From: Escherichia phage CMSTMSU
DNA: 64,000 nucleotides
Reading direction: 5' to 3' (one strand)
Sequence record: MH494197.1
Each line of letters opens with the position of its first letter. The first letter of the stretch is position 1. Under the pieces are notes generated by a model that did no database searches, was not told the origin of the DNA, and saw only the letters and a list, made by a program, of their open reading frames with translations. The position numbers and the translations under genes are program-made. This document shows, piece by piece, positions 29,615 through 39,062 of the stretch.

Positions 29615-30189
29615 TCATTCCTCATTAGTATAAATCAGTAATGTCTTTGTATGCATTAATCTGTTTTGTTGTAATGAAAGTTCATTGAGTTTAGTTACCA
29701 TTTTATCTACACCAACACGTATATAGAAAATAATAAATGAATCTAACTTGCCTAGAGTAATTCTTGAACTGTAAGTTGAAAGTTTTCTTGCATAAACATA
29801 AATTTCTTCTTCACTTGGTAAACGTTTCTCAATCAGCAAGTTTTCCACACCATTCGGCTCATAATCAATTTCGAACTCTACGCCTATCACAGTATCTTGA
29901 ATGATATCAGTATATGAACCACCGAAAAATACTCTCTTGGTTTGGCTCTCCAACGAGGACTAAATGGGTCAGATGCGTATTCTTTAACAAATTTGTAAAA
30001 GGACATTTTACTGAGCATATATTTCATCTCAATTAGTGCTTTGCGGTCATCATCAGTTTTAAACTCTGCTTTGAGCGATGGACTTTTACACAGTAACTTA
30101 ACTAAATTGTTGTACATCTTTAATGTACGTTGGTCTTTCATTTCTTGGATTTTGTGACGCTTTGGTGGTGGTAGTAAAGATTTGACCAT
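29615..30189 (-). CDS. hypothetical protein (two overlapping fragments)
   Basis: ORFs 29615..29953 and 29887..30189 on same strand. Confidence 0.25.
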
Positions 30190-30221
30190 AATTTCCTCCT
30201 GTATTTTCTAGCATTATACAC

Positions 30222-30245
30222 ATAAAGAAAAGCCCGTCAATAGAC
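30222..30245 (-). terminator. hairpin terminator downstream of fibre gene A
   Basis: gcccgtc aata gacgagc inverted repeat with T-run on minus strand. Confidence 0.4.
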
Positions 30246-30257
30246 GAGCTTAAAATT

Positions 30258-32977
30258 TTAATGCCAACGTGTACCAGAGCTTGAAGGAACACCAGAACTT
30301 GCAGGGATAGCAGAACCACGCTTGGTTGTACTAGGTCTGTATGTCAAGAATCGTGTTACCTTTTCCGTATCAATTGACGTGATACTCGTACTTCCAGTAA
30401 CAATATCACCAACGTATACGTTTGTCAATGTCTCATCAAGAAGAGTTGTACTGATAACGTATGCCGCTTTTCTTGTGTTACGGTTCATTTGAATGTAAAG
30501 ATAAAAAGTACTGTTAGCTGGGTTAGTTTTAATAGTACTTAATTCTATGGTTTGAATCGCTAATCTATCAAACATACCACCAAGGAATACCGGAACTTCA
30601 CGGGTGAAGTACACCGTGAAACCTTCAGCAACATCTTGTGAAACTACTACGATTTTATCTTGTACAGTTCCTGAACCATCAATCAACCCATCCATCTGTG
30701 CTGATGTTGTCCCAAAGAGACTAAACACTGCTTTAGTTTGATAATCTGAATCTTGAAGATGATAGTATCCAAATCCAACACCGGTATAACTCCGTGCTGG
30801 AATGCATTGCCATTATCTATGTAGCTGGATGACATAAATCGGTTAGATGTAATCAAACCATTCACTGTTTTAGCAATCATCAATTTGAATTGAGCATTAC
30901 GGTTGTGAAAACTGATGAACTGCATCAACCCCAATATAACCAAATCCAGAATACTTTGCAACAGTTAGACCAGTACAGCGTTTCATATAGGCTTCAGTTA
31001 CAATACCTGTTACAGAATTAAGTGTTTCGTATCTAGAACTCACCATAGTCGCAGAACTAATATTGGTTCCTGAAATGGTAACATCAACTTCAGAATATAT
31101 TGCATAACCTTGGTTATTGCCTAAGTTATATGCAGAAACCACCGCAATAGATTTTGAGAAAGAACTATCTGGTACATAATATAAAGCAATTTTACCAGTA
31201 AATGCTCCTACTATTCCAATATTAGCAAGTATTTCTTGTTTTAATGTTTCCAGAACATTATCACCAATTGTATAAGAACCATCAAATTCTAAAGTATCTG
31301 GGTTAAACAAACCACCACTTGTTTTGTATACACCTTCAATGAATGATGTCCCATAGCATTTAACTGAACCGTCAGTGTCAATTAATGAAATCATACCTGT
31401 ATATTTGTAGTTGTCGCCGAGGCGAATTCGGTTGGCTTGTGGTGCAAAACCATTAAGTGTTGTATTGTTTTGTACTGAATTGAACTGGAAGGTTGGTTCA
31501 GTACCAATTTCAGAAAATACTGTATTGTTATAGCCATATGACTCATCTTCATATGTTCCAGAACATGCTAACAGTACTTTACGTTTATCAATAAAACGTG
31601 TTCCTAAAAGGTTTTCACCTACTGCACTACCATATGTTGGTGCAACGTTTACAAATTTGGAATTGTTCGCTTTACGAGTACTGGCAACCCAACTATCATA
31701 TGGTGTTCCTGTTACGTTATAAACCTGAATACCATAGGTTTCAGATGAACTCCAACGAGCACGTGTGCTGAATACTAAACCGTCATAGGTTTGGCATATA
31801 GAACCAACGTTACCTAATTGTGGAACACCTAACTGTGTACCCATGAAGTTATTCATCTCAATGGCAAATGGGTTTGTTAATGTGAATCCATCAACATCAT
31901 TATATTCCGCTGCTATTGGTGCTCTACTACTTCCATCAATTGATAATGATTTAGAGTTGATAGTATAAACAAAACTAAAACCACTAGCATAAACAGTACT
32001 AATATATAGATTTGATACTAAACGGTTAGTTGGGAATAATGTAATTCTAATCTTTGATAAATCTGGACTTACGTTTGCTTGTATATTATAATCTGTATAA
32101 TCTGAATATTCAACTCGTGTAACTGGTGAAGTGCATTCAAATAATGAATCATTACTAGTTCCAACTGAATATAATCTTTCATAAATTTTCAAATTATTAG
32201 CACTTGTGTAGTTAACACTTCTTAAGGTTTGACCAGAAAACCAGTAACCTTAGCAAAAGTACTCATAGTACCATCTTTAATACTACTTGTATTAACAGTA
32301 TATAATGTTAAAGCCAAACCATAGTTTGCTATAGTAGTGTCTTTGCACCACACAAATACTTTATCATTGACGATATGTGCATATAATGGTTTATCTGTAC
32401 CAAATGATGTAGCAGCGATAGAAGCGTGAATATGTGCAACTTCGTTAAATGTACCATTTGTTAAAGTGAAAATATAATTACTTGCACTAGATAGGCTAAC
32501 TAGTAATTCATAACCATTCGTTCCGATAAACTGTTTAACATTTTCAGTACTTGGAAGAATTCTAGGATGATATTTTGATGTAGTACTGATAACACTACTT
32601 TGTGTTAGTGCATCAATATTACGCAAATCACGAATGAATGCATAGTAATATCCTTCAGTACTACCATTTGTACCAGCACGTAATACCACACCAGTACCAT
32701 CATCTTCGACTATTGTTGGTTGCATACGGTATACATCTGAAAGCGACGTTGCCTTCGTATGAACCATTAACGTTTAATGGTAGATAATCCATTTCTATAC
32801 GGGAGATTGGTAACATATCAAGTATTTTTGAACTTCTGATCTTTTATAAATTGGATAGTCAACAATACCTGTATTTGCGTCTGGTGCTGTACCATTAAAA
32901 GTACGCATAGCGTACTTTCCACCAATTGCCAAATTTCCAAGTATAGCAGCACTACCAATGATGCGTTTGGATGACAT
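30258..32977 (-). CDS. tail fibre / receptor-binding protein paralog A (about 900 aa, frameshifted)
   Basis: Ser/Thr/Asn/Gly-rich fragments 30258..30728, 30897..32192, 32222..32767, 32795..32977; shares N-terminal and C-terminal modules with paralogs B and C. Confidence 0.5.
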
Positions 32978-33000
32978 ATTCTTTTCCTTTAATTACCAGC

Positions 33001-33590
33001 CTAATGTACCAGTTTGTGTTGGATTTCCAGTACTGACTGGGAAAGATGAACCTTTTGTGTTGTACTTGGTCTGTATGTATTGAATCGTGATACGCGTTCA
33101 ATGTTGATAGCAGTAATACCAGAAGTTCCAACGGTAATAGTCCCGATGAACATTATAATCTGTGATTCTTGTAATTGTGAAGTTGAGATTCTATAAATTG
33201 GCTCACCCAGTACTAAAGTAGCGTATACATATTGTGTTTGTGTGCCTGATGCCACTGTTGGTGCTGTCACTGCAACAACAGGGTAATTATAAAGATAGCC
33301 ACCGATGAATGCAGGTATCTCTCGGTTAAAACGTAATGAATAACCGCTTGATGTAATTGACAAACTAGATACATCATAAAGTTCACCATATTGTGATAAT
33401 GGTAAACCGTTAACAATAGAATCAACTTCATCTTTTGTTAAGAGGGGAATGTACATTCCCCATTTGCGTCTGTTCGATACGATACGTCATTAATATCACT
33501 AATAGATAGTCCAGTGTTTTTATTCTGGACTACGATTTGTGACATAGCTTCGATATCGGATCTTATAATATATGCCATAAGATTAATCCT
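33001..33590 (-). CDS. short fibre-like paralog B (about 195 aa)
   Basis: Contains both the shared N-terminal motif (LPLSQYGELYDV) and the shared C-terminal domain (ITAINIERVSRFNTYRPSTTQK). Confidence 0.45.
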
Positions 33591-36273
33591 TTACCAATTA
33601 ATTGTTCCTGTTTGTGACGGTAGACCATAACTAACTGGGAATGAAGAACCAGCAGCTTCAAGAGACGCACCGAAAATATCCAATCTTGAACGTTTTTGTA
33701 TGTTAACATTTGATATTTGTATTGAGTTTGTTTGTATAGTACCTATCCAGAAAATATTATATGCTGTAGTACCAGTCTCTGAAATAACATCAGTTGTTAT
33801 TACATATTTTGCATTACCTTGTTCCATTTTAACATATACATGAAATAATGTGTTTGCTGGATTAGCCTTAACTGTAGTTAAGTTTATACTAGTAATCGGT
33901 AATGTAAATGCTTTACCAGAAAGAATTACTGGAGTTTCTTCTGTGAAGTACACAATAAAACCTTGAGCAACGTCTTGTGAAACTACGTTAATCGGTGCAC
34001 CTTGAGCAGTCCAGTTATTATAATCAGCAATTGTAGTACCACATTTTGGAAAGTCATTTTGTTTACATAGTCTATTGCTTGGAAATAACCAAAACCAATA
34101 CCGTAAAGCTGCTGGTTGAATACCTTGCTCATAACTTGCATGTGAACCACTGATAATAAAACTATCAAATTGTGCAGTTGCTTTTGTTACATATGCTCTG
34201 AATTGGTGTGTGTTTGTATTACCAATAGTTGGGTGAGATAATGGGTCAGAACCACCTATGAAGTAGAAAGAACCACCATCATATATTGTTAAACCAACAG
34301 AAGACGATGCAAAACTACCATTACCATTTGGTGTAAAGTTACTTCCGTAAACGTTTTCTAGTACTAAACGCTTGAAGGTAATTGTAGTGATATTACCTGA
34401 ACGTGTATTCACATTCACTTCAGCAATTCTAATATAGTTCTGATATGTATTTGTAACTGTACTTAGCATTACAAATGCAGGTATATCAGTTTGTTGTGGA
34501 ACAAACAATGTCATATCTTTATAAGCAGCAGGAGATAAGTTCCAGTCGCTTAGTACTTTGGCGTATTCAGCATTTCTGAAATTATCAAGTACAGATTGAG
34601 TAACACTAATGATACCAGTTCCGTTCATATTTTTATCATATGATAGTGATTGGGAATATCTCTGACCTACCATGAATATCCCACCATTTGTAGTAACATT
34701 ATTACCACTAATGGAACTAATAAAACTCTGTTGTTCGTGTTATCTGTCACATTAGCACGTTCTGTTGTTGGCTCATAACCTTGTATGGTTCCACGTGATA
34801 AAGAATTAAACGTAAAGTTAGAGTACTTTTATGAACTGCATAAGATGGACGGAATGCACCAGAACCAGTTGAACGAGAATACTGTTTAGTACTGTTCCCG
34901 GAAGCAATTCTACGCCGTTAATAAAAGAACCAACTGCTGAACCAAATGAAGGACGAACTATGCCATTTCTGAAATCAGTTGAAATGTTCGCACGTACATT
35001 AATCATGCTATATATTGATTGTGCAGTAAATTTAGCTTTCTGCATAAGTAATGGTTCTGCTAAGTTTGGACATGCAGTACAGAATACTTCACCTGTATTC
35101 AAATAATAATATGAACTGTAAATGTTTCTTGCACCGCTATGGTCATATAACGGATCGTTGTTGAGAACATTACCAGTAGCAACCAATGCCGAACCTGTGT
35201 TTGTAACAACAAATGGTGCAGCAAATGTACCAATATCGTTCCCATTATCCAAGTTACATTGTTTAGTACTCATGTTAAAATTGAAACTATAACTATGCTG
35301 TGGTCGGGTATTGTAGTTTGCCATAGTGAACCATGCGTCACCATTCATTCTGAATCGGAAGTTCTGCGTTCCGGCTCCTGAGCAACATATAAATCGATAG
35401 ATGTCATATAAATCCCCATACCAGCCAAATTTTGTGGTACATAGACATAGGGCTTATCAGCAATATTAGTTGAGTTAACATGGTCAGTAATGATCATATT
35501 ATTCTGAGCAGTATATGTAGTATTGTAAAAGTTTTTGTTGTCCACCCCGTGATTCGGGTAGCAGTATAAGTACCGTTTGCAATATTCAACACAACACGAA
35601 CAACAACAATCTGTAGTTTGTTATTTTCATTAAGGACGTTGAATACATAAACTGAACCGTCTTCTGCCATCATAGCATACTCAATCCCACCTTCAGGTGA
35701 AATATCAGCTTGGTTCACAAAAGACCACTATGTTGAGTATCATCCAATGTACCATTCGTTACTGATATAAACAACCCATTAGTATTGGTAGATGTGTCAT
35801 TGTAACGACCTAACAGTATTTTTGAATCGGTATTGTATAAACCAATAGCAACACGGTTTGCCCCAAAATAGCCGGCTTATACTGACGGCTTGTATTAACA
35901 GTACGGCTCATATCGGTAACGGATAATGCGTTCGCTAGGTAAGAATAAAATAAACCTTCAACACTACCGTTTGTACCACTACGTAATAGTACTAATGTGC
36001 CATCGTTTTCTAAAAGTATTTTGTTTCTACGTTGGGATTGGTTTTCTGATGCACCATTAAAATCACCAGATACCCCAGCAGGTAGATAGTTATGTGTACC
36101 ATAATGCGAGATTGGAAGTAAACTAATTACATCAAGTAATTCTTCTTTGGAATATGTATCAATTTCCATATTACCATTAGCATCAAATACTTGATCATTG
36201 ATACCCTGTACTGTTCTTTTCCTTTAACTGTCACATTATGAGTGACGTCTAAGCCACCATATATTTTCTTTGA
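33591..36273 (-). CDS. tail fibre / receptor-binding protein paralog C (about 890 aa, frameshifted)
   Basis: Fragments 33591..34673, 34818..35348, 35345..35545, 35494..35718, 35810..36169; N-terminal LLPISHYG and C-terminal VVSQDVAQGFIVYFT module shared with A and B. Confidence 0.5.
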
Positions 36274-36334
36274 CATACATATCCCTTGTAATTTAGATAT
36301 TAGTTACTGTATTTATGAATGTAATAAAAAGCAC

Positions 36335-36358
36335 CCATTGGGTGCTTGTGTTTAAAAG
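36335..36358 (-). terminator. hairpin terminator at end of nrdG
   Basis: gcaccc att gggtgc inverted repeat flanked by A/T runs. Confidence 0.4.
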
Positions 36359-36820
36359 TCTTTATTTTTATATAAAATTCGTTGGTTATTTGAACCACGA
36401 AATGGTAATGTTAAATTCTTTTCTTCTGAAACAAATTTACCATCAACTAATACATCTAAGTACTGAAGAATGTCTTTAGCATGATTATTCATAATCTCTT
36501 CTAAAGTATATCCACTCCAGCACCAAATAGTTTTATTGGGATAAGTTTCTTTTACAATCTTACATAGTTCTAAAATTGTTTCTATGTTCTTTTTCATTAG
36601 AGGATCTCCACCAAGGAGGGATAATCCACTAACGTAAGGCTTACTGAGTTCAGCTAAAATTATATCAATTGTATCAGTACTGAACTCTTGTCCACTTCTA
36701 TAATCCCATGCTTCTTCGTTGAAGCATCCGGCACACCCATGACTGCACCCACTAACAAAAGGGAGCATCTTACTCCCTCCCATTAATAAGGTCGTCTTTA
36801 ATTATCGTCTGGTAATTCAT
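36352..36820 (-). CDS. nrdG: anaerobic ribonucleotide reductase activating protein (radical SAM)
   Basis: FVSGCSHGCAGCFNEEAW radical-SAM cysteine motif; N-terminus extended by hand. Confidence 0.8.
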
Positions 36821-38956
36821 CTAATATTGCACTCACTATCTCAACGAGAACATCACCATGACATGATTTCGGTTTACAGAAACAGCCAAGACGTTTCTGC
36901 TAACTCAAGTAAATCATCAATCTTAACTTCTCCATTAGAAATACGCTCAATAATGTATTCTCTGAACTTTTCGATTGATTCTTCCCTTGTAGCAACAATG
37001 AACTCGGCTTTGGTCTGTTTATCACTGATATGGGTAAATGGGTTTCCATTTAGACCCACGCCCGATATACACATCATACGGTTCTTTATATTTGTTAACC
37101 ACAATTGGCTTTAAATCCATAATGTACCTTATTTGTGTTGTATACGCTCACAACATTCTTGTTGTTTTCCTTTGTTGAATCCACGAGACGATGGGTTCCC
37201 AAATATCCAGAAACACGACGAATCACTGAGATTGTCTTCTCATTGCGATTATCACATACTGGACAATGAAAACCGTGTTTATCTACACTGAACTCACCTT
37301 TATACCCACACTCGTAACACTGGTCAATTGGCTGGTTGATGCCAAAATATGGAATCTTTGTGTAAGCGTAATTGACTAAAGTCTCAAGTGCTTGAATATT
37401 GTTACTTAGGTTGGGTGATTCAACATAACTGATGTTTCCACCATTACTGAGGTAAGCAAATCCCTCTTCGTAACTCCACTTATCAAATGGTGAACTTTCT
37501 ACCCATACTGGTTGATGGAAGGAATTTGTGATGTAATCACGTTTTAGTACTGAAGGGTATTTAGATTCGATGCAACGTGCAAATTTGTAGCAAAGTGACT
37601 CTGCTGGGGTTCCATATAGACTAAAAGCTATATTACTCTCTTTTTGAACTCATCGCATTTTACTTTCATATAATTCAGTACTGACATACAGAACTCCTTA
37701 CTGATAGAACCAGTCAGAATTTCTGAACATTCAACTAAACCAACGTAACCAATACTAATACTAGCATATCCGTTATAAAATAGCTTGTCAATCGTTTCTT
37801 CTGCCCCTAAACGTGAAAGTGCACCTTCCATGAACAAAATCGGATTCTGCTTCGCTTTTGTGCCTTTTAAACGCTCTACGCGGTTCATCTGAGCACGATA
37901 TGCAATATTCATATGCTCGTCTATTTTATCAAAAACTCTCCATCTGAGGCACTTTCAAGAGCAATTAGAGGTAAATTGATAGAAACTACGCCTAAGTTGA
38001 AACGACCGTTATATTGCTCATTTCCATTGGAATCTTCCCATTTTCCCAAAATGAACGACAGCCCATCGGGGTTACTGCTGTACTGCTACTTCCTGTAACT
38101 TTGTGATTTAACGGCACAGAAACGAAGTCTGGGTAGATTCTCTTCGATGCACAACGCATTGCCAACTGTTTCATGTCATAGTTGCAATCATCGCTATTCA
38201 TGTTGATTCCGTCCTGTAAAAAGAAAATTACTTTAGGAAACACAGGAGTAATCTTATCTTTACCTAAACCATTCTCATGTACTTTTAAGTACTGTTCAGT
38301 GATTAATTTGCCAAATTTTGAAGTATTCAGTCCTAAACTAAGAGAAATGAATGCTGCTTGTCCGTTTGTACTAATCATTGAATTTGTCTGGTAAAGTAAG
38401 GTTTGACACCCATCATAGACTTCTTTTCGTAATTCTTCCTCAATGTATTCAGTACTGAGATTATATGCCTTTTGCTTCGCTAATAGCTTATCCCACGACT
38501 TTTGGACGTAAGGTTCAAGACCAACGTCGATATGAGCCAACGATTGACCACCGTACTGGGAACTTGCAACAGCTTGTACAATTTGTGTCAGTACTGTACA
38601 TGCTACACTAAAACTCTTTGGTTCTTCAATTTTGGCACAACCAATGGTAAATCCATTTTTAGCATATCTGGATAGTTAACCAAGCAACAGTTAGTTAATG
38701 GGCTGATATAGTAGTCTAAATCATGAATGTGACCATAACCATCATTATGCCACTGCATTAGCTCCTTTGGAATAACATCTTGTGAATAATGCTTAGATAG
38801 GATACCAGCAAGTAAATCCCTGTGTGTATTGACGCATTTCGCATCTTTGTTTGCATTTTCATTTGTAAGATCAGTATTGCTCTGATTTAGGAAATTTGTT
38901 ACGTCAGTATATAATTTATCTAATTGCATTTTACTTTCCTTGTATTTTGAAATCAT
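36795..38956 (-). CDS. nrdD: anaerobic ribonucleoside-triphosphate reductase (class III), frameshifted into 4 fragments
   Basis: HNDGYGHIHDLD motif in 38603..38956; zinc-ribbon CYECG and Gly-rich C-terminal region; fragments 37992..38540, 37628..37912, 36874..37104. Confidence 0.85.
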
Positions 38957-39062
38957 CTGGGGTGAAGTTATTTAACATCACCAGACACCATTATAGCGTC
39001 AGAACAGGGTATTTCTATTGATCTATATCAAGGAAAGGTCACATTGCTTTTATTTGCACAAA

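Follow-up and report, generated by a model that had tools for sequence, protein, structure and literature searches.

Introduction

The closest described counterparts of the proteins analyzed here are the receptor-binding proteins (RBPs) of the siphophages p2 and 1358, the tripod protein of the myovirus phi812, TssK, and, among the jumbo phages, phiKZ gp131 and its companions gp132 to gp135. RBPs that dock on the baseplate through a shoulder domain are known. This domain is what the p2 RBP, SPP1 gp22, and TssK have in common; in its trimeric form it clamps an arm of a baseplate protein. Here, we analyzed three adjacent genes, named A, B, and C, in a 64,000-nucleotide stretch (the window) of the sequence record MH494197.1 from Escherichia phage CMSTMSU. 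Genes of this kind have been deposited many times as "hypothetical protein". The reading that we consider probable is that A, B, and C are three ancient paralogs of a virion-protein family found almost only in jumbo myoviruses, and that their products are low-copy, tail- or baseplate-associated proteins of the receptor-binding type. They would be anchored through a shoulder domain, A and C carrying propeller heads and B being headless. No earlier description seems to exist of the split domain with a propeller insertion, the recurrent headless paralogs, or the wide distribution of the family among jumbo phages. Text searches of the papers on the Asteriusvirus phages fEgEco12 and Sharanji found no discussion of these genes, and the phAPEC6 paper only lists gp323c, the ortholog of A, in its proteome table.

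The p2 (ORF18; 2WZP/2BSD) and 1358 (4L92) RBPs are virion-borne, are associated with saccharide-binding folds, and have a short segment after the shoulder that forms an interlaced neck; the corresponding segment is unstructured in the monomer model obtained here. They differ from the proteins of this locus in that here the domain is C-terminal and apparently split by a propeller insertion of about 700 aa, no head follows the neck, the phages are jumbo myoviruses rather than siphophages, and the sequences are not similar (about 10% identity). TssK and the phi812 tripod offer the mechanism proposed below, a trimer that clamps a loop or arm of the baseplate scaffold (TssFG in one case, the docking loops of the arm scaffold in the other). 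The tripod protein is also a multidomain glycan-binding myovirus baseplate protein of about 1000 aa, present as 12 trimers, but it carries carbohydrate-binding module sandwiches and LysM instead of propellers, its domain order is different, and no sequence homology was detectable. The phiKZ gp131 set resembles the locus as a group of tandem jumbo phage paralogs that share an attachment region, with a propeller thought to contact the host. It forms a hetero-oligomer with 12 fibers per baseplate, a number near the approximately 13 copies of the Goslar homologs gp26 and gp28. In gp131, however, the shared part is N-terminal and includes a helix bundle, and the seven-bladed propeller is C-terminal. 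Neither sequence nor profile comparison matched a gp131 chain in the PDB, the presence of these chains in the searched set being assumed, and phiKZ was not among the tblastn matches listed.

Repair of the Genes

In the unrepaired window each of the three genes is broken into several short open reading frames (ORFs), and only 24 ORFs of at least 150 aa are found in the 64 kb, a scarcity caused by systematic basecalling errors. Alignment of a 6.4-kb stretch (positions 30000–36400) with the genome of Escherichia phage Turkey3 revealed 51 substitutions, 22 deletions of 1–3 nt, and no insertions. All 22 deletions sit in a homopolymer or a CCWGG site, and 18 of them fall within the genes (10 in A, 2 in B, and 6 in C); examples of error positions are 30783, 30901, 34103, 34900, 35373, and 35874. 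Every one of the six CCWGG sites that Turkey3 has in this region is lost from the window, where a single CCWGG is left in 64 kb versus a density of 0.36 per kb in Turkey3, and homopolymers of at least 6 nt are depleted about ten-fold. This deletion pattern is that of systematic basecalling error and not of pseudogenes. Since the deletions are confined to homopolymers and CCWGG sites, the frameshifts are assembly errors and not biology; the pattern is typical of nanopore-only assemblies of Dcm-methylated DNA, which implies that most "frameshifts" of the window are artifacts.

The genes were repaired by restoring the bases deleted relative to Turkey3. The resulting proteins of 898 (A), 195 (B), and 909 aa (C) have no internal stops and differ from their Turkey3 counterparts at 4, 0, and 5 amino acids, respectively. 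The region matches 34 phage genomes, eight of them at 98–99% identity (Escherichia phages EC.P1, Turkey3, WPEC3, fEgEco12, and others), and the window is 98.8% identical to Turkey3; the PBECO4/121Q/phAPEC6 group of Asteriusvirus matches the region at about 77%. These identities point to an Asteriusvirus-type E. coli jumbo phage, in an error-rich assembly, as the source. Traces of the broken frames are present in the databases. A 151-aa protein deposited under Escherichia phage CMSTMSU (UNVERIFIED_ORG) is identical to the broken ORF at 33001–33456, and BFVD/UniProt fragments of 360, 431, 119, 74, and 151 aa match broken ORFs of the window in length.

Relationships Among the Three Proteins

The amino acid sequences of the three proteins were compared with each other. 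In BLASTP, A and C of Turkey3 share two blocks with E values of 4e-37 and 5e-23, and PBECO4 gp071, the ortholog of C, aligns with Turkey3 A over 912 columns at 27% identity (E 2e-64). By these alignments the homology of A and C extends from end to end, cores included. B resembles A and C only in their first ~65 and last ~120 residues. It matches the C-terminal ends of A and C with BLASTP E values of 7e-16 and 9e-22, and in profile–profile comparison its residues 77–195 correspond to residues 774–898 of A (probability 99.96%, E 3e-39); the N-termini of B and A match with an E value of 6e-4. Residues 1–898 of A and 25–909 of C match the hidden Markov model (HMM) of PHROG family phrog_3573 (E 1.2e-263 and 2.4e-231), and residues 1–195 of B match phrog_26864 (E 9.5e-84). 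PHROG 3573, 26864, and 7449 have no functional annotation, and neither the link between the long and short families nor their fold is recorded there.

An earlier note, made from the window sequence, had described two genes of about 900 aa and one of about 195 aa sharing N- and C-terminal segments around divergent cores, and the pairwise alignments of the repaired genes, with similarity far above chance, bear this out. The concern that the shared segments were products of mis-joined frames can be set aside: the repaired genes keep them, and more than 30 genomes of related phages carry A, B, and C in intact form. Two details required revision. The second N-terminal motif, GT.VLLR.GTNGS, which had been attributed to all three proteins, is present in A and C and absent from B. 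The cores of A and C have indeed diverged, but they are still homologous and not unrelated modules.

Fold and Domain Organization

The AlphaFold2 model of B has a confident all-beta core at residues ~62–165, with a predicted local distance difference test (pLDDT) score above 90, flanked by a disordered N-terminus and a disordered tail. The model of A, built from a 94-sequence alignment, is compact and all-beta (mean pLDDT 90.7, predicted template modeling score 0.84). Between residues 86 and 750 it contains about 12 four-stranded sheets, and therefore its core probably consists of two beta-propellers; the blade counts in A, like the contact between the LP strand described below and the shoulder domain, were inferred rather than seen in three-dimensional coordinates.

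The C-terminal domain of about 110 aa shows, in the predicted model, the beta-sandwich shoulder fold of p2-type RBPs and TssK. The best fold match of B was the p2 RBP (2wzp_A, score 9.7), followed by the cyanophage A-1(L) tail fiber (7.7), the phage 1358 RBP (7.6), SPP1 gp22 (7.3), TssK (5.0–6.5), the HFTV1 tail fiber (6.3–6.4), and a phi812 DUF4815 baseplate protein that is probably the tripod protein (5.9). Pfam searches of A, B, and C at E ≤ 1 returned nothing but a sub-threshold DUF5484 match.

All three proteins carry a short LP motif near the N-terminus (LPISHYG in A, LPLSQYG in B, and LPISRIG in C), and we propose that the LPISHYG strand of A is the first strand of its shoulder domain. 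In B, which has no propeller, the N-terminal segment leads into the LP strand; the shoulder domain and the tail follow. The LP strand is contiguous with the sandwich in B and in two other short proteins, Goslar gp28 and Deimos-Minion gp18, whose alignments start at the LP motif. Because the LP strand directly adjoins the sandwich in the short proteins, LP strand and C-terminal sandwich would form one domain, with the ~700-aa propellers inserted after its first strand in A and C. The tail that follows the sandwich is the most conserved stretch of the family, made of invariant or near-invariant alignment columns.

Association with the Virion

The A ortholog of phAPEC6, gp323c (98.62 kDa), was detected among the structural proteins of purified virions of that phage by electrospray ionization tandem mass spectrometry (ESI-MS/MS) with 4 peptides and 5.6% coverage (PMC7247149, Table 1). 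In Goslar, label-free quantification mass spectrometry (LFQ-MS) gave 12.8 copies per virion (8.5–20) of the long homolog gp26 and 14.3 copies (9.5–22) of the short homolog gp28, together with 13.8 copies (9.2–21.6) of gp27, which is not homologous. Ghost particles of three Eneladusviruses contained, by LC-MS/MS (liquid chromatography coupled to tandem mass spectrometry), proteins of 99.7, 99, and 97.3 kDa that gave comparable numbers of peptides, and the three Eneladusvirus paralogs compute to 99.8, 99.1, and 97.3 kDa. Neighbors in BFVD are annotated as virion structural proteins. Two other sources were not used as evidence for presence in the virion: the "structural protein" label of CBB gp148 and gp149 is unsupported by the MS table of that paper, and the Agricanvirus MS data come from crude lysates and report expression only.

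Evolution and Distribution

The three genes are all of the long form (899–920 aa) in Mimasvirus (CBB) and Eneladusvirus (pEa_SNUABM_12). The orthology with CBB is one-to-one: A corresponds to gp147 (47% identity) and C is closest to gp149 (36%). The long middle gene, gp148, matches B at both ends, residues 1–67 of each protein sharing 41% identity (E 4e-11) and residues 79–195 of B sharing 45% identity with residues 798–916 of gp148. B is thus the middle paralog after loss of its former core of about 730 aa. The length of about 195 aa is kept in 29 sequence clusters, down to 41% identity, the tail is near-invariant (VSRF.TYRPSTTQKGSAFPVSTG.P.QTGTINW), and the ratio of nonsynonymous to synonymous substitution rates (dN/dS) is 0.20–0.36 for B and 0.09–0.33 for A and C, rough values given that dS is saturated. 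The conserved length, the near-invariant tail, and the low dN/dS argue that B is not a decaying remnant, and all three genes appear to be under purifying selection. Orthologs of A and C diverge smoothly, with 30–90% identity per 50-aa window and somewhat more conserved ends, and sliding-window identity detected no abrupt replacement of a segment among them.

An exhaustive HMMER search collected 334 representative clusters, most of them of 870–1000 aa, with some of 1400–1850 aa and several of about 190 aa. By tblastn, the family was found in 165 phage records, and all carriers among the matches listed are jumbo phages. They include the RaK2-like genera, Agricanvirus, and many Chimalliviridae (Goslar, EL, PCH45, RisingSun, and the SPN3US group). 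The RaK2-like phages checked have three tblastn places genome-wide; at the loci examined, Agricanvirus has three paralogs and EL and Goslar have two each. The generalization that there are always three paralogs was therefore rejected, since the EL and Goslar loci have two shoulder-domain genes. RaK2 gp098 was set aside as a homolog: it has 595 aa and a T4 gp34/pyocin-like C-terminus, and RaK2 was not among the tblastn matches listed; this exclusion did not involve a direct sequence comparison.

Short forms are found repeatedly and independently. Goslar gp28 (169 aa) can be aligned with B from the LP motif on (hhalign probability 90%, E 1.6e-6). In Deimos-Minion gp18 (420 aa), a fiber-like N-terminus leads straight into the LP strand, which the shoulder domain and tail follow, and the neighboring gp19 has the same N-terminus plus a propeller core. 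This N-terminus of about 270 aa, located directly before the LP strand, is shared with the tail-fiber-like proteins gp25 and gp29 of Goslar. Goslar gp27 (161 aa), which sits between gp26 and gp28 (locus positions 2860–6475), was rejected as a third member of the family (hhalign probability 0.6%); as a third, unrelated partner, it might belong to the same complex.

The module is found at other positions in some longer proteins. Deimos-Minion gp20 runs about 135 aa past the conserved Trp (locus positions 6469–9924), so that the module is not terminal there, and in the proteins of 1400–1850 aa (e.g., P0131, P0138, P0206, and P0217) the whole module is internal, with extra domains on both sides. 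A Pfam search of six longer members gave a single match, a Phage_fiber_2 repeat just upstream of the module in a 1705-aa protein, the genomic context of which, an 8-kb contig, was uninformative.

Organization of the Locus and Neighboring Genes

The positions of the genes and their parts are listed in Table 1. The start codon of A was read directly as ATG at 36276–36274, three nucleotides beyond the end given in the earlier note (36273). The genes are separated by 12 nt (A–B) and 16 nt (B–C), and a Shine–Dalgarno-like sequence precedes each of them. Terminator-like hairpins lie on both sides of the A–B–C unit, one directly after the stop codon of C and the other between the nrdG stop codon and the start of A. 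The total number of hairpins in the region was not above that of shuffled sequence, and therefore the placement of flanking terminators is suggestive only. A promoter scan gave nothing above the shuffled expectation, and a tRNA scan of the window found none.

Table 1. Positions of the three genes, their parts, and the flanking hairpins in the window.
Feature	Position	Strand	Description
Gene A	33591..36276	-	898 aa, 98 kDa after 10 repairs; orthologs Turkey3 XMR01144, PBECO4 gp073, phAPEC6 gp323c
A residues 44–62	36092..36148	-	Helix (H44–51), then LPISHYG strand (E56–59); pLDDT 72–86
A residues ~86–750	34038..36022	-	All-beta core of ~12 four-stranded sheets, opening with the conserved E.DGT.V.LR.GTNGS blade
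A residues 766–898	33594..33992	-	Shoulder-like beta-sandwich and conserved C-terminal tail ending in Trp
Gene B	32993..33578	-	195 aa, 21 kDa after 2 repairs; orthologs PBECO4 gp072, 121Q gp500
B residues 49–165	33085..33435	-	Helix, LPLSQYG strand, shoulder-like domain
B residues 166–195	32996..33084	-	C-terminal tail ...FNTYRPSTTQKGSSFPVSTGNPTQTGTLGW; pLDDT 36–40, disordered in the monomer model
Gene C	30258..32977	-	909 aa, 99 kDa after 6 repairs; orthologs Turkey3 XMR01146, PBECO4 gp071; closest Mimasvirus counterpart CBB gp149
C residues 779–909	30261..30653	-	Shoulder-like domain and tail; shoulder HMM E 1.5e-53; BLASTP to B E 9e-22
Terminator-like hairpin	36329..36347	-	AAGCACCCAATGGGTGCTT, then a run of T; lies between the stop of nrdG and the start of A
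Terminator-like hairpin	30230..30251	-	Directly after the C stop

In all relatives examined, the three genes follow nrdD, a gene for a small glycyl-radical protein, and nrdG. In the window these neighbors (36352–39000, minus strand) are also fragmented, and nrdG is identical to that of Turkey3 once repaired. Genes of the adsorption type adjoin here a block of nucleotide metabolism, with a terminator-like hairpin between them.

Some annotations of related genomes can be amended. The phAPEC6 DNA (MK817115) has intact, unannotated ORFs for B and C (locus positions 3261–6116 and 6007–6642), where only a 114-nt ORF was called. The RefSeq start of PBECO4 gp071 (886 aa; NC_027364, locus positions 8258–10987) seems to be 23 codons too short, and the in-frame upstream extension (MSSKRIIGSAEILGNLAIGQRYA...) matches the N-termini of the Turkey3 and ph0011 orthologs (909–913 aa). 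A few kilobases downstream of the cluster, PBECO4 carries gp063 (929 aa, "tail protein") and gp064 (locus positions 1464–4882), for which neither the window nor Turkey3 has a counterpart. Going by its size and the gene order, gp063 seems to be the equivalent of the 105-kDa "tail fiber" gp314c detected by MS in phAPEC6. Here the two Asteriusvirus subclades truly differ by the presence or absence of a putative adsorption gene, which, unlike A, B, and C, looks like a host-range cassette.

Discussion

On fold models and by analogy with the described systems, the three proteins are most likely trimeric, baseplate-docked, glycan-binding RBPs. In the mechanism that we propose, the LP strand and the sandwich form one domain into which the propellers are inserted, B being this domain without the insertion. 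The shoulder domains would trimerize as in the p2 RBP, TssK, and the phi812 tripod, and the crevice of the trimer would dock on a loop or arm belonging to a peripheral baseplate or tail protein. For the conserved tail, folding may occur only in the oligomer, as in the interlaced neck of the p2 RBP; its disorder in the monomer is as expected of an interlaced trimeric neck. The propellers, of a lectin or glycosidase fold, would bind, or possibly cut, a glycan of the host surface. The tight transcription unit and the purifying selection suggest non-redundant roles of the three genes in one adsorption structure, which may be present in about 12–18 copies per virion.

Several observations weigh against this reading. 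No Asteriusvirus virion has so far yielded B or C; in the record of phAPEC6 neither of them is annotated, and its MS search could therefore not have detected them. The Goslar preparation also held non-virion assemblies, as its own paper cautions, the Eneladusvirus proteins were assigned by mass match alone, and the MS table of CBB does not list gp148 and gp149 (CBB_148 and CBB_149). With respect to the fold, the shoulder match is at about 10% identity with a moderate Z score, and no PDB chain was related by sequence when a single sequence and the 94-sequence profile were compared with all PDB sequences. The shoulder-like domain is C-terminal and followed only by a tail of about 30 aa, while it is N-terminal in the p2 RBP and TssK, and its packing against the LP strand in A comes from sequence topology and was not seen. 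Propeller folds are generic, and no binding or catalytic site was identified in the core.

The oligomeric state could also be a different one. A possible arrangement, which we regard as somewhat doubtful, is an obligate A:B:C heterotrimer with a pseudo-threefold shoulder and an interlaced tail in place of three homotrimers. It is favored by the three places of the RaK2-like phages and the three copies of Agricanvirus, by the one-to-one orthology across genera, and by the tight tricistronic unit. The near-equimolar long and short proteins of Goslar, at about 13 copies each, are consistent with 12 complexes; the three Eneladusvirus paralogs have similar peptide counts, and phiKZ provides a precedent for a hetero-oligomer. 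If this arrangement is correct, evolution would determine how many heads a trimer has, with three heads in Mimasvirus and Eneladusvirus, two in Asteriusvirus and Agricanvirus, and a single one in Goslar, and B would be deliberately headless.

Other explanations concern what the proteins are. The earlier note had seen in them fiber-like genes, and they could be elongated tail fibers with a common N-terminal anchor, exchangeable cores, and a C-terminal tip or chaperone, host range being changed by swapping modules. The N- and C-terminal segments common to all three genes, the somewhat more conserved ends of the orthologs, and the distant relatives with fiber-like N-termini or the Phage_fiber_2 repeat speak for such fibers. 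We nevertheless consider them improbable. The model of A is compact, rich in propellers, and confident as a monomer. The Pfam search found neither Peptidase_S74 (PF13884) nor another chaperone signature in A, B, or C, and the C-terminal domain has the RBP-shoulder fold. The short forms, which run the LP strand straight into the shoulder domain, suggest a single domain rather than an anchor with a separate tip. The homologous cores of A and C, the smooth divergence of orthologous cores without replacement, and the orthology that each paralog keeps between Asteriusvirus and Mimasvirus count against modular switching of host range. What stands of the earlier description is that these are structural proteins of the receptor-binding type, as indicated by the detection of phAPEC6 gp323c, the copies of Goslar gp26 and gp28, and the shoulder fold. 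A related idea is that A, B, and C build the "hairy" whisker fibers of the phAPEC6 and CBB tail and capsid by head-to-tail polymerization, the tail of one protein joining the N-terminus of the next. The whisker genes of both phages are unassigned, the N-terminus and tail of the three proteins are conserved yet disordered in the monomer, and head-to-tail filaments of the DUF7941 virion proteins (gp22 and gp23) have been proposed for Goslar. This hypothesis is unlikely, and it is the one to which we would give the least weight: the family occurs in many phages that are not called hairy in the sources consulted, such as EL, those of the SPN3US group, Agricanvirus, and Goslar, as well as in GAP32, which the CBB authors treat as possibly whisker-less, a point that they left open. 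The low abundance, 4 peptides for gp323c and about 13 copies in Goslar, contrasts with the hundreds to thousands expected of filament proteins, A, B, and C have no Pfam match to DUF7941, and Goslar gp26 and gp28 are absent from the DUF7941 list of the source paper.

The propeller cores could be enzymes carried on the virion, glycosidases or depolymerases of the GH43, GH130, or sialidase type, instead of lectin-like binders, a possibility that is compatible with the docking model and that we consider rather unlikely. The first blade has an invariant Glu (E90) and near-invariant Arg and His residues (R99 and H183), and a possible enzymatic role has likewise been discussed for the seven-bladed propeller of phiKZ gp131; however, identity to any enzyme is 4–10%, no Pfam glycosidase family was matched, and lectin, NHL, and Kelch propellers score equally well. 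As to B, it could be a non-virion tail-fiber assembly chaperone or adaptor, needed only while A and C fold, comparable to the small genes found after fiber genes in T4, Mu, and lambda. Its small size and its position between two long genes, at very short distances from both, would fit this function, and B has no MS evidence in any Asteriusvirus. Such a role seems unlikely to us, since the structural domain and the tail of A and C are also found in B, which has no chaperone fold, its positional ortholog in Mimasvirus and Eneladusvirus is full-length and probably in virions, and Goslar gp28 is found in virions in an amount equal to that of its long homolog.

If the three proteins are shoulder-anchored RBPs, the locus would fill part of a gap. 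The adsorption proteins of the RaK2-like coliphages (121Q, PBECO4, and phAPEC6), phages that have been proposed for therapy, are largely unassigned, and the locus supplies three conserved, probably virion-borne candidates that combine a putative docking domain with heads of the lectin or glycosidase type. The family is shared with the nucleus-forming Chimalliviridae, in which the peripheral baseplates of Goslar and phiKZ are partly unmodeled in the cryo-electron microscopy maps, and models with a split shoulder or without propellers could be fitted to unassigned densities. The headed and headless subunits would offer a simple handle on how large baseplates recruit receptor-binding modules.

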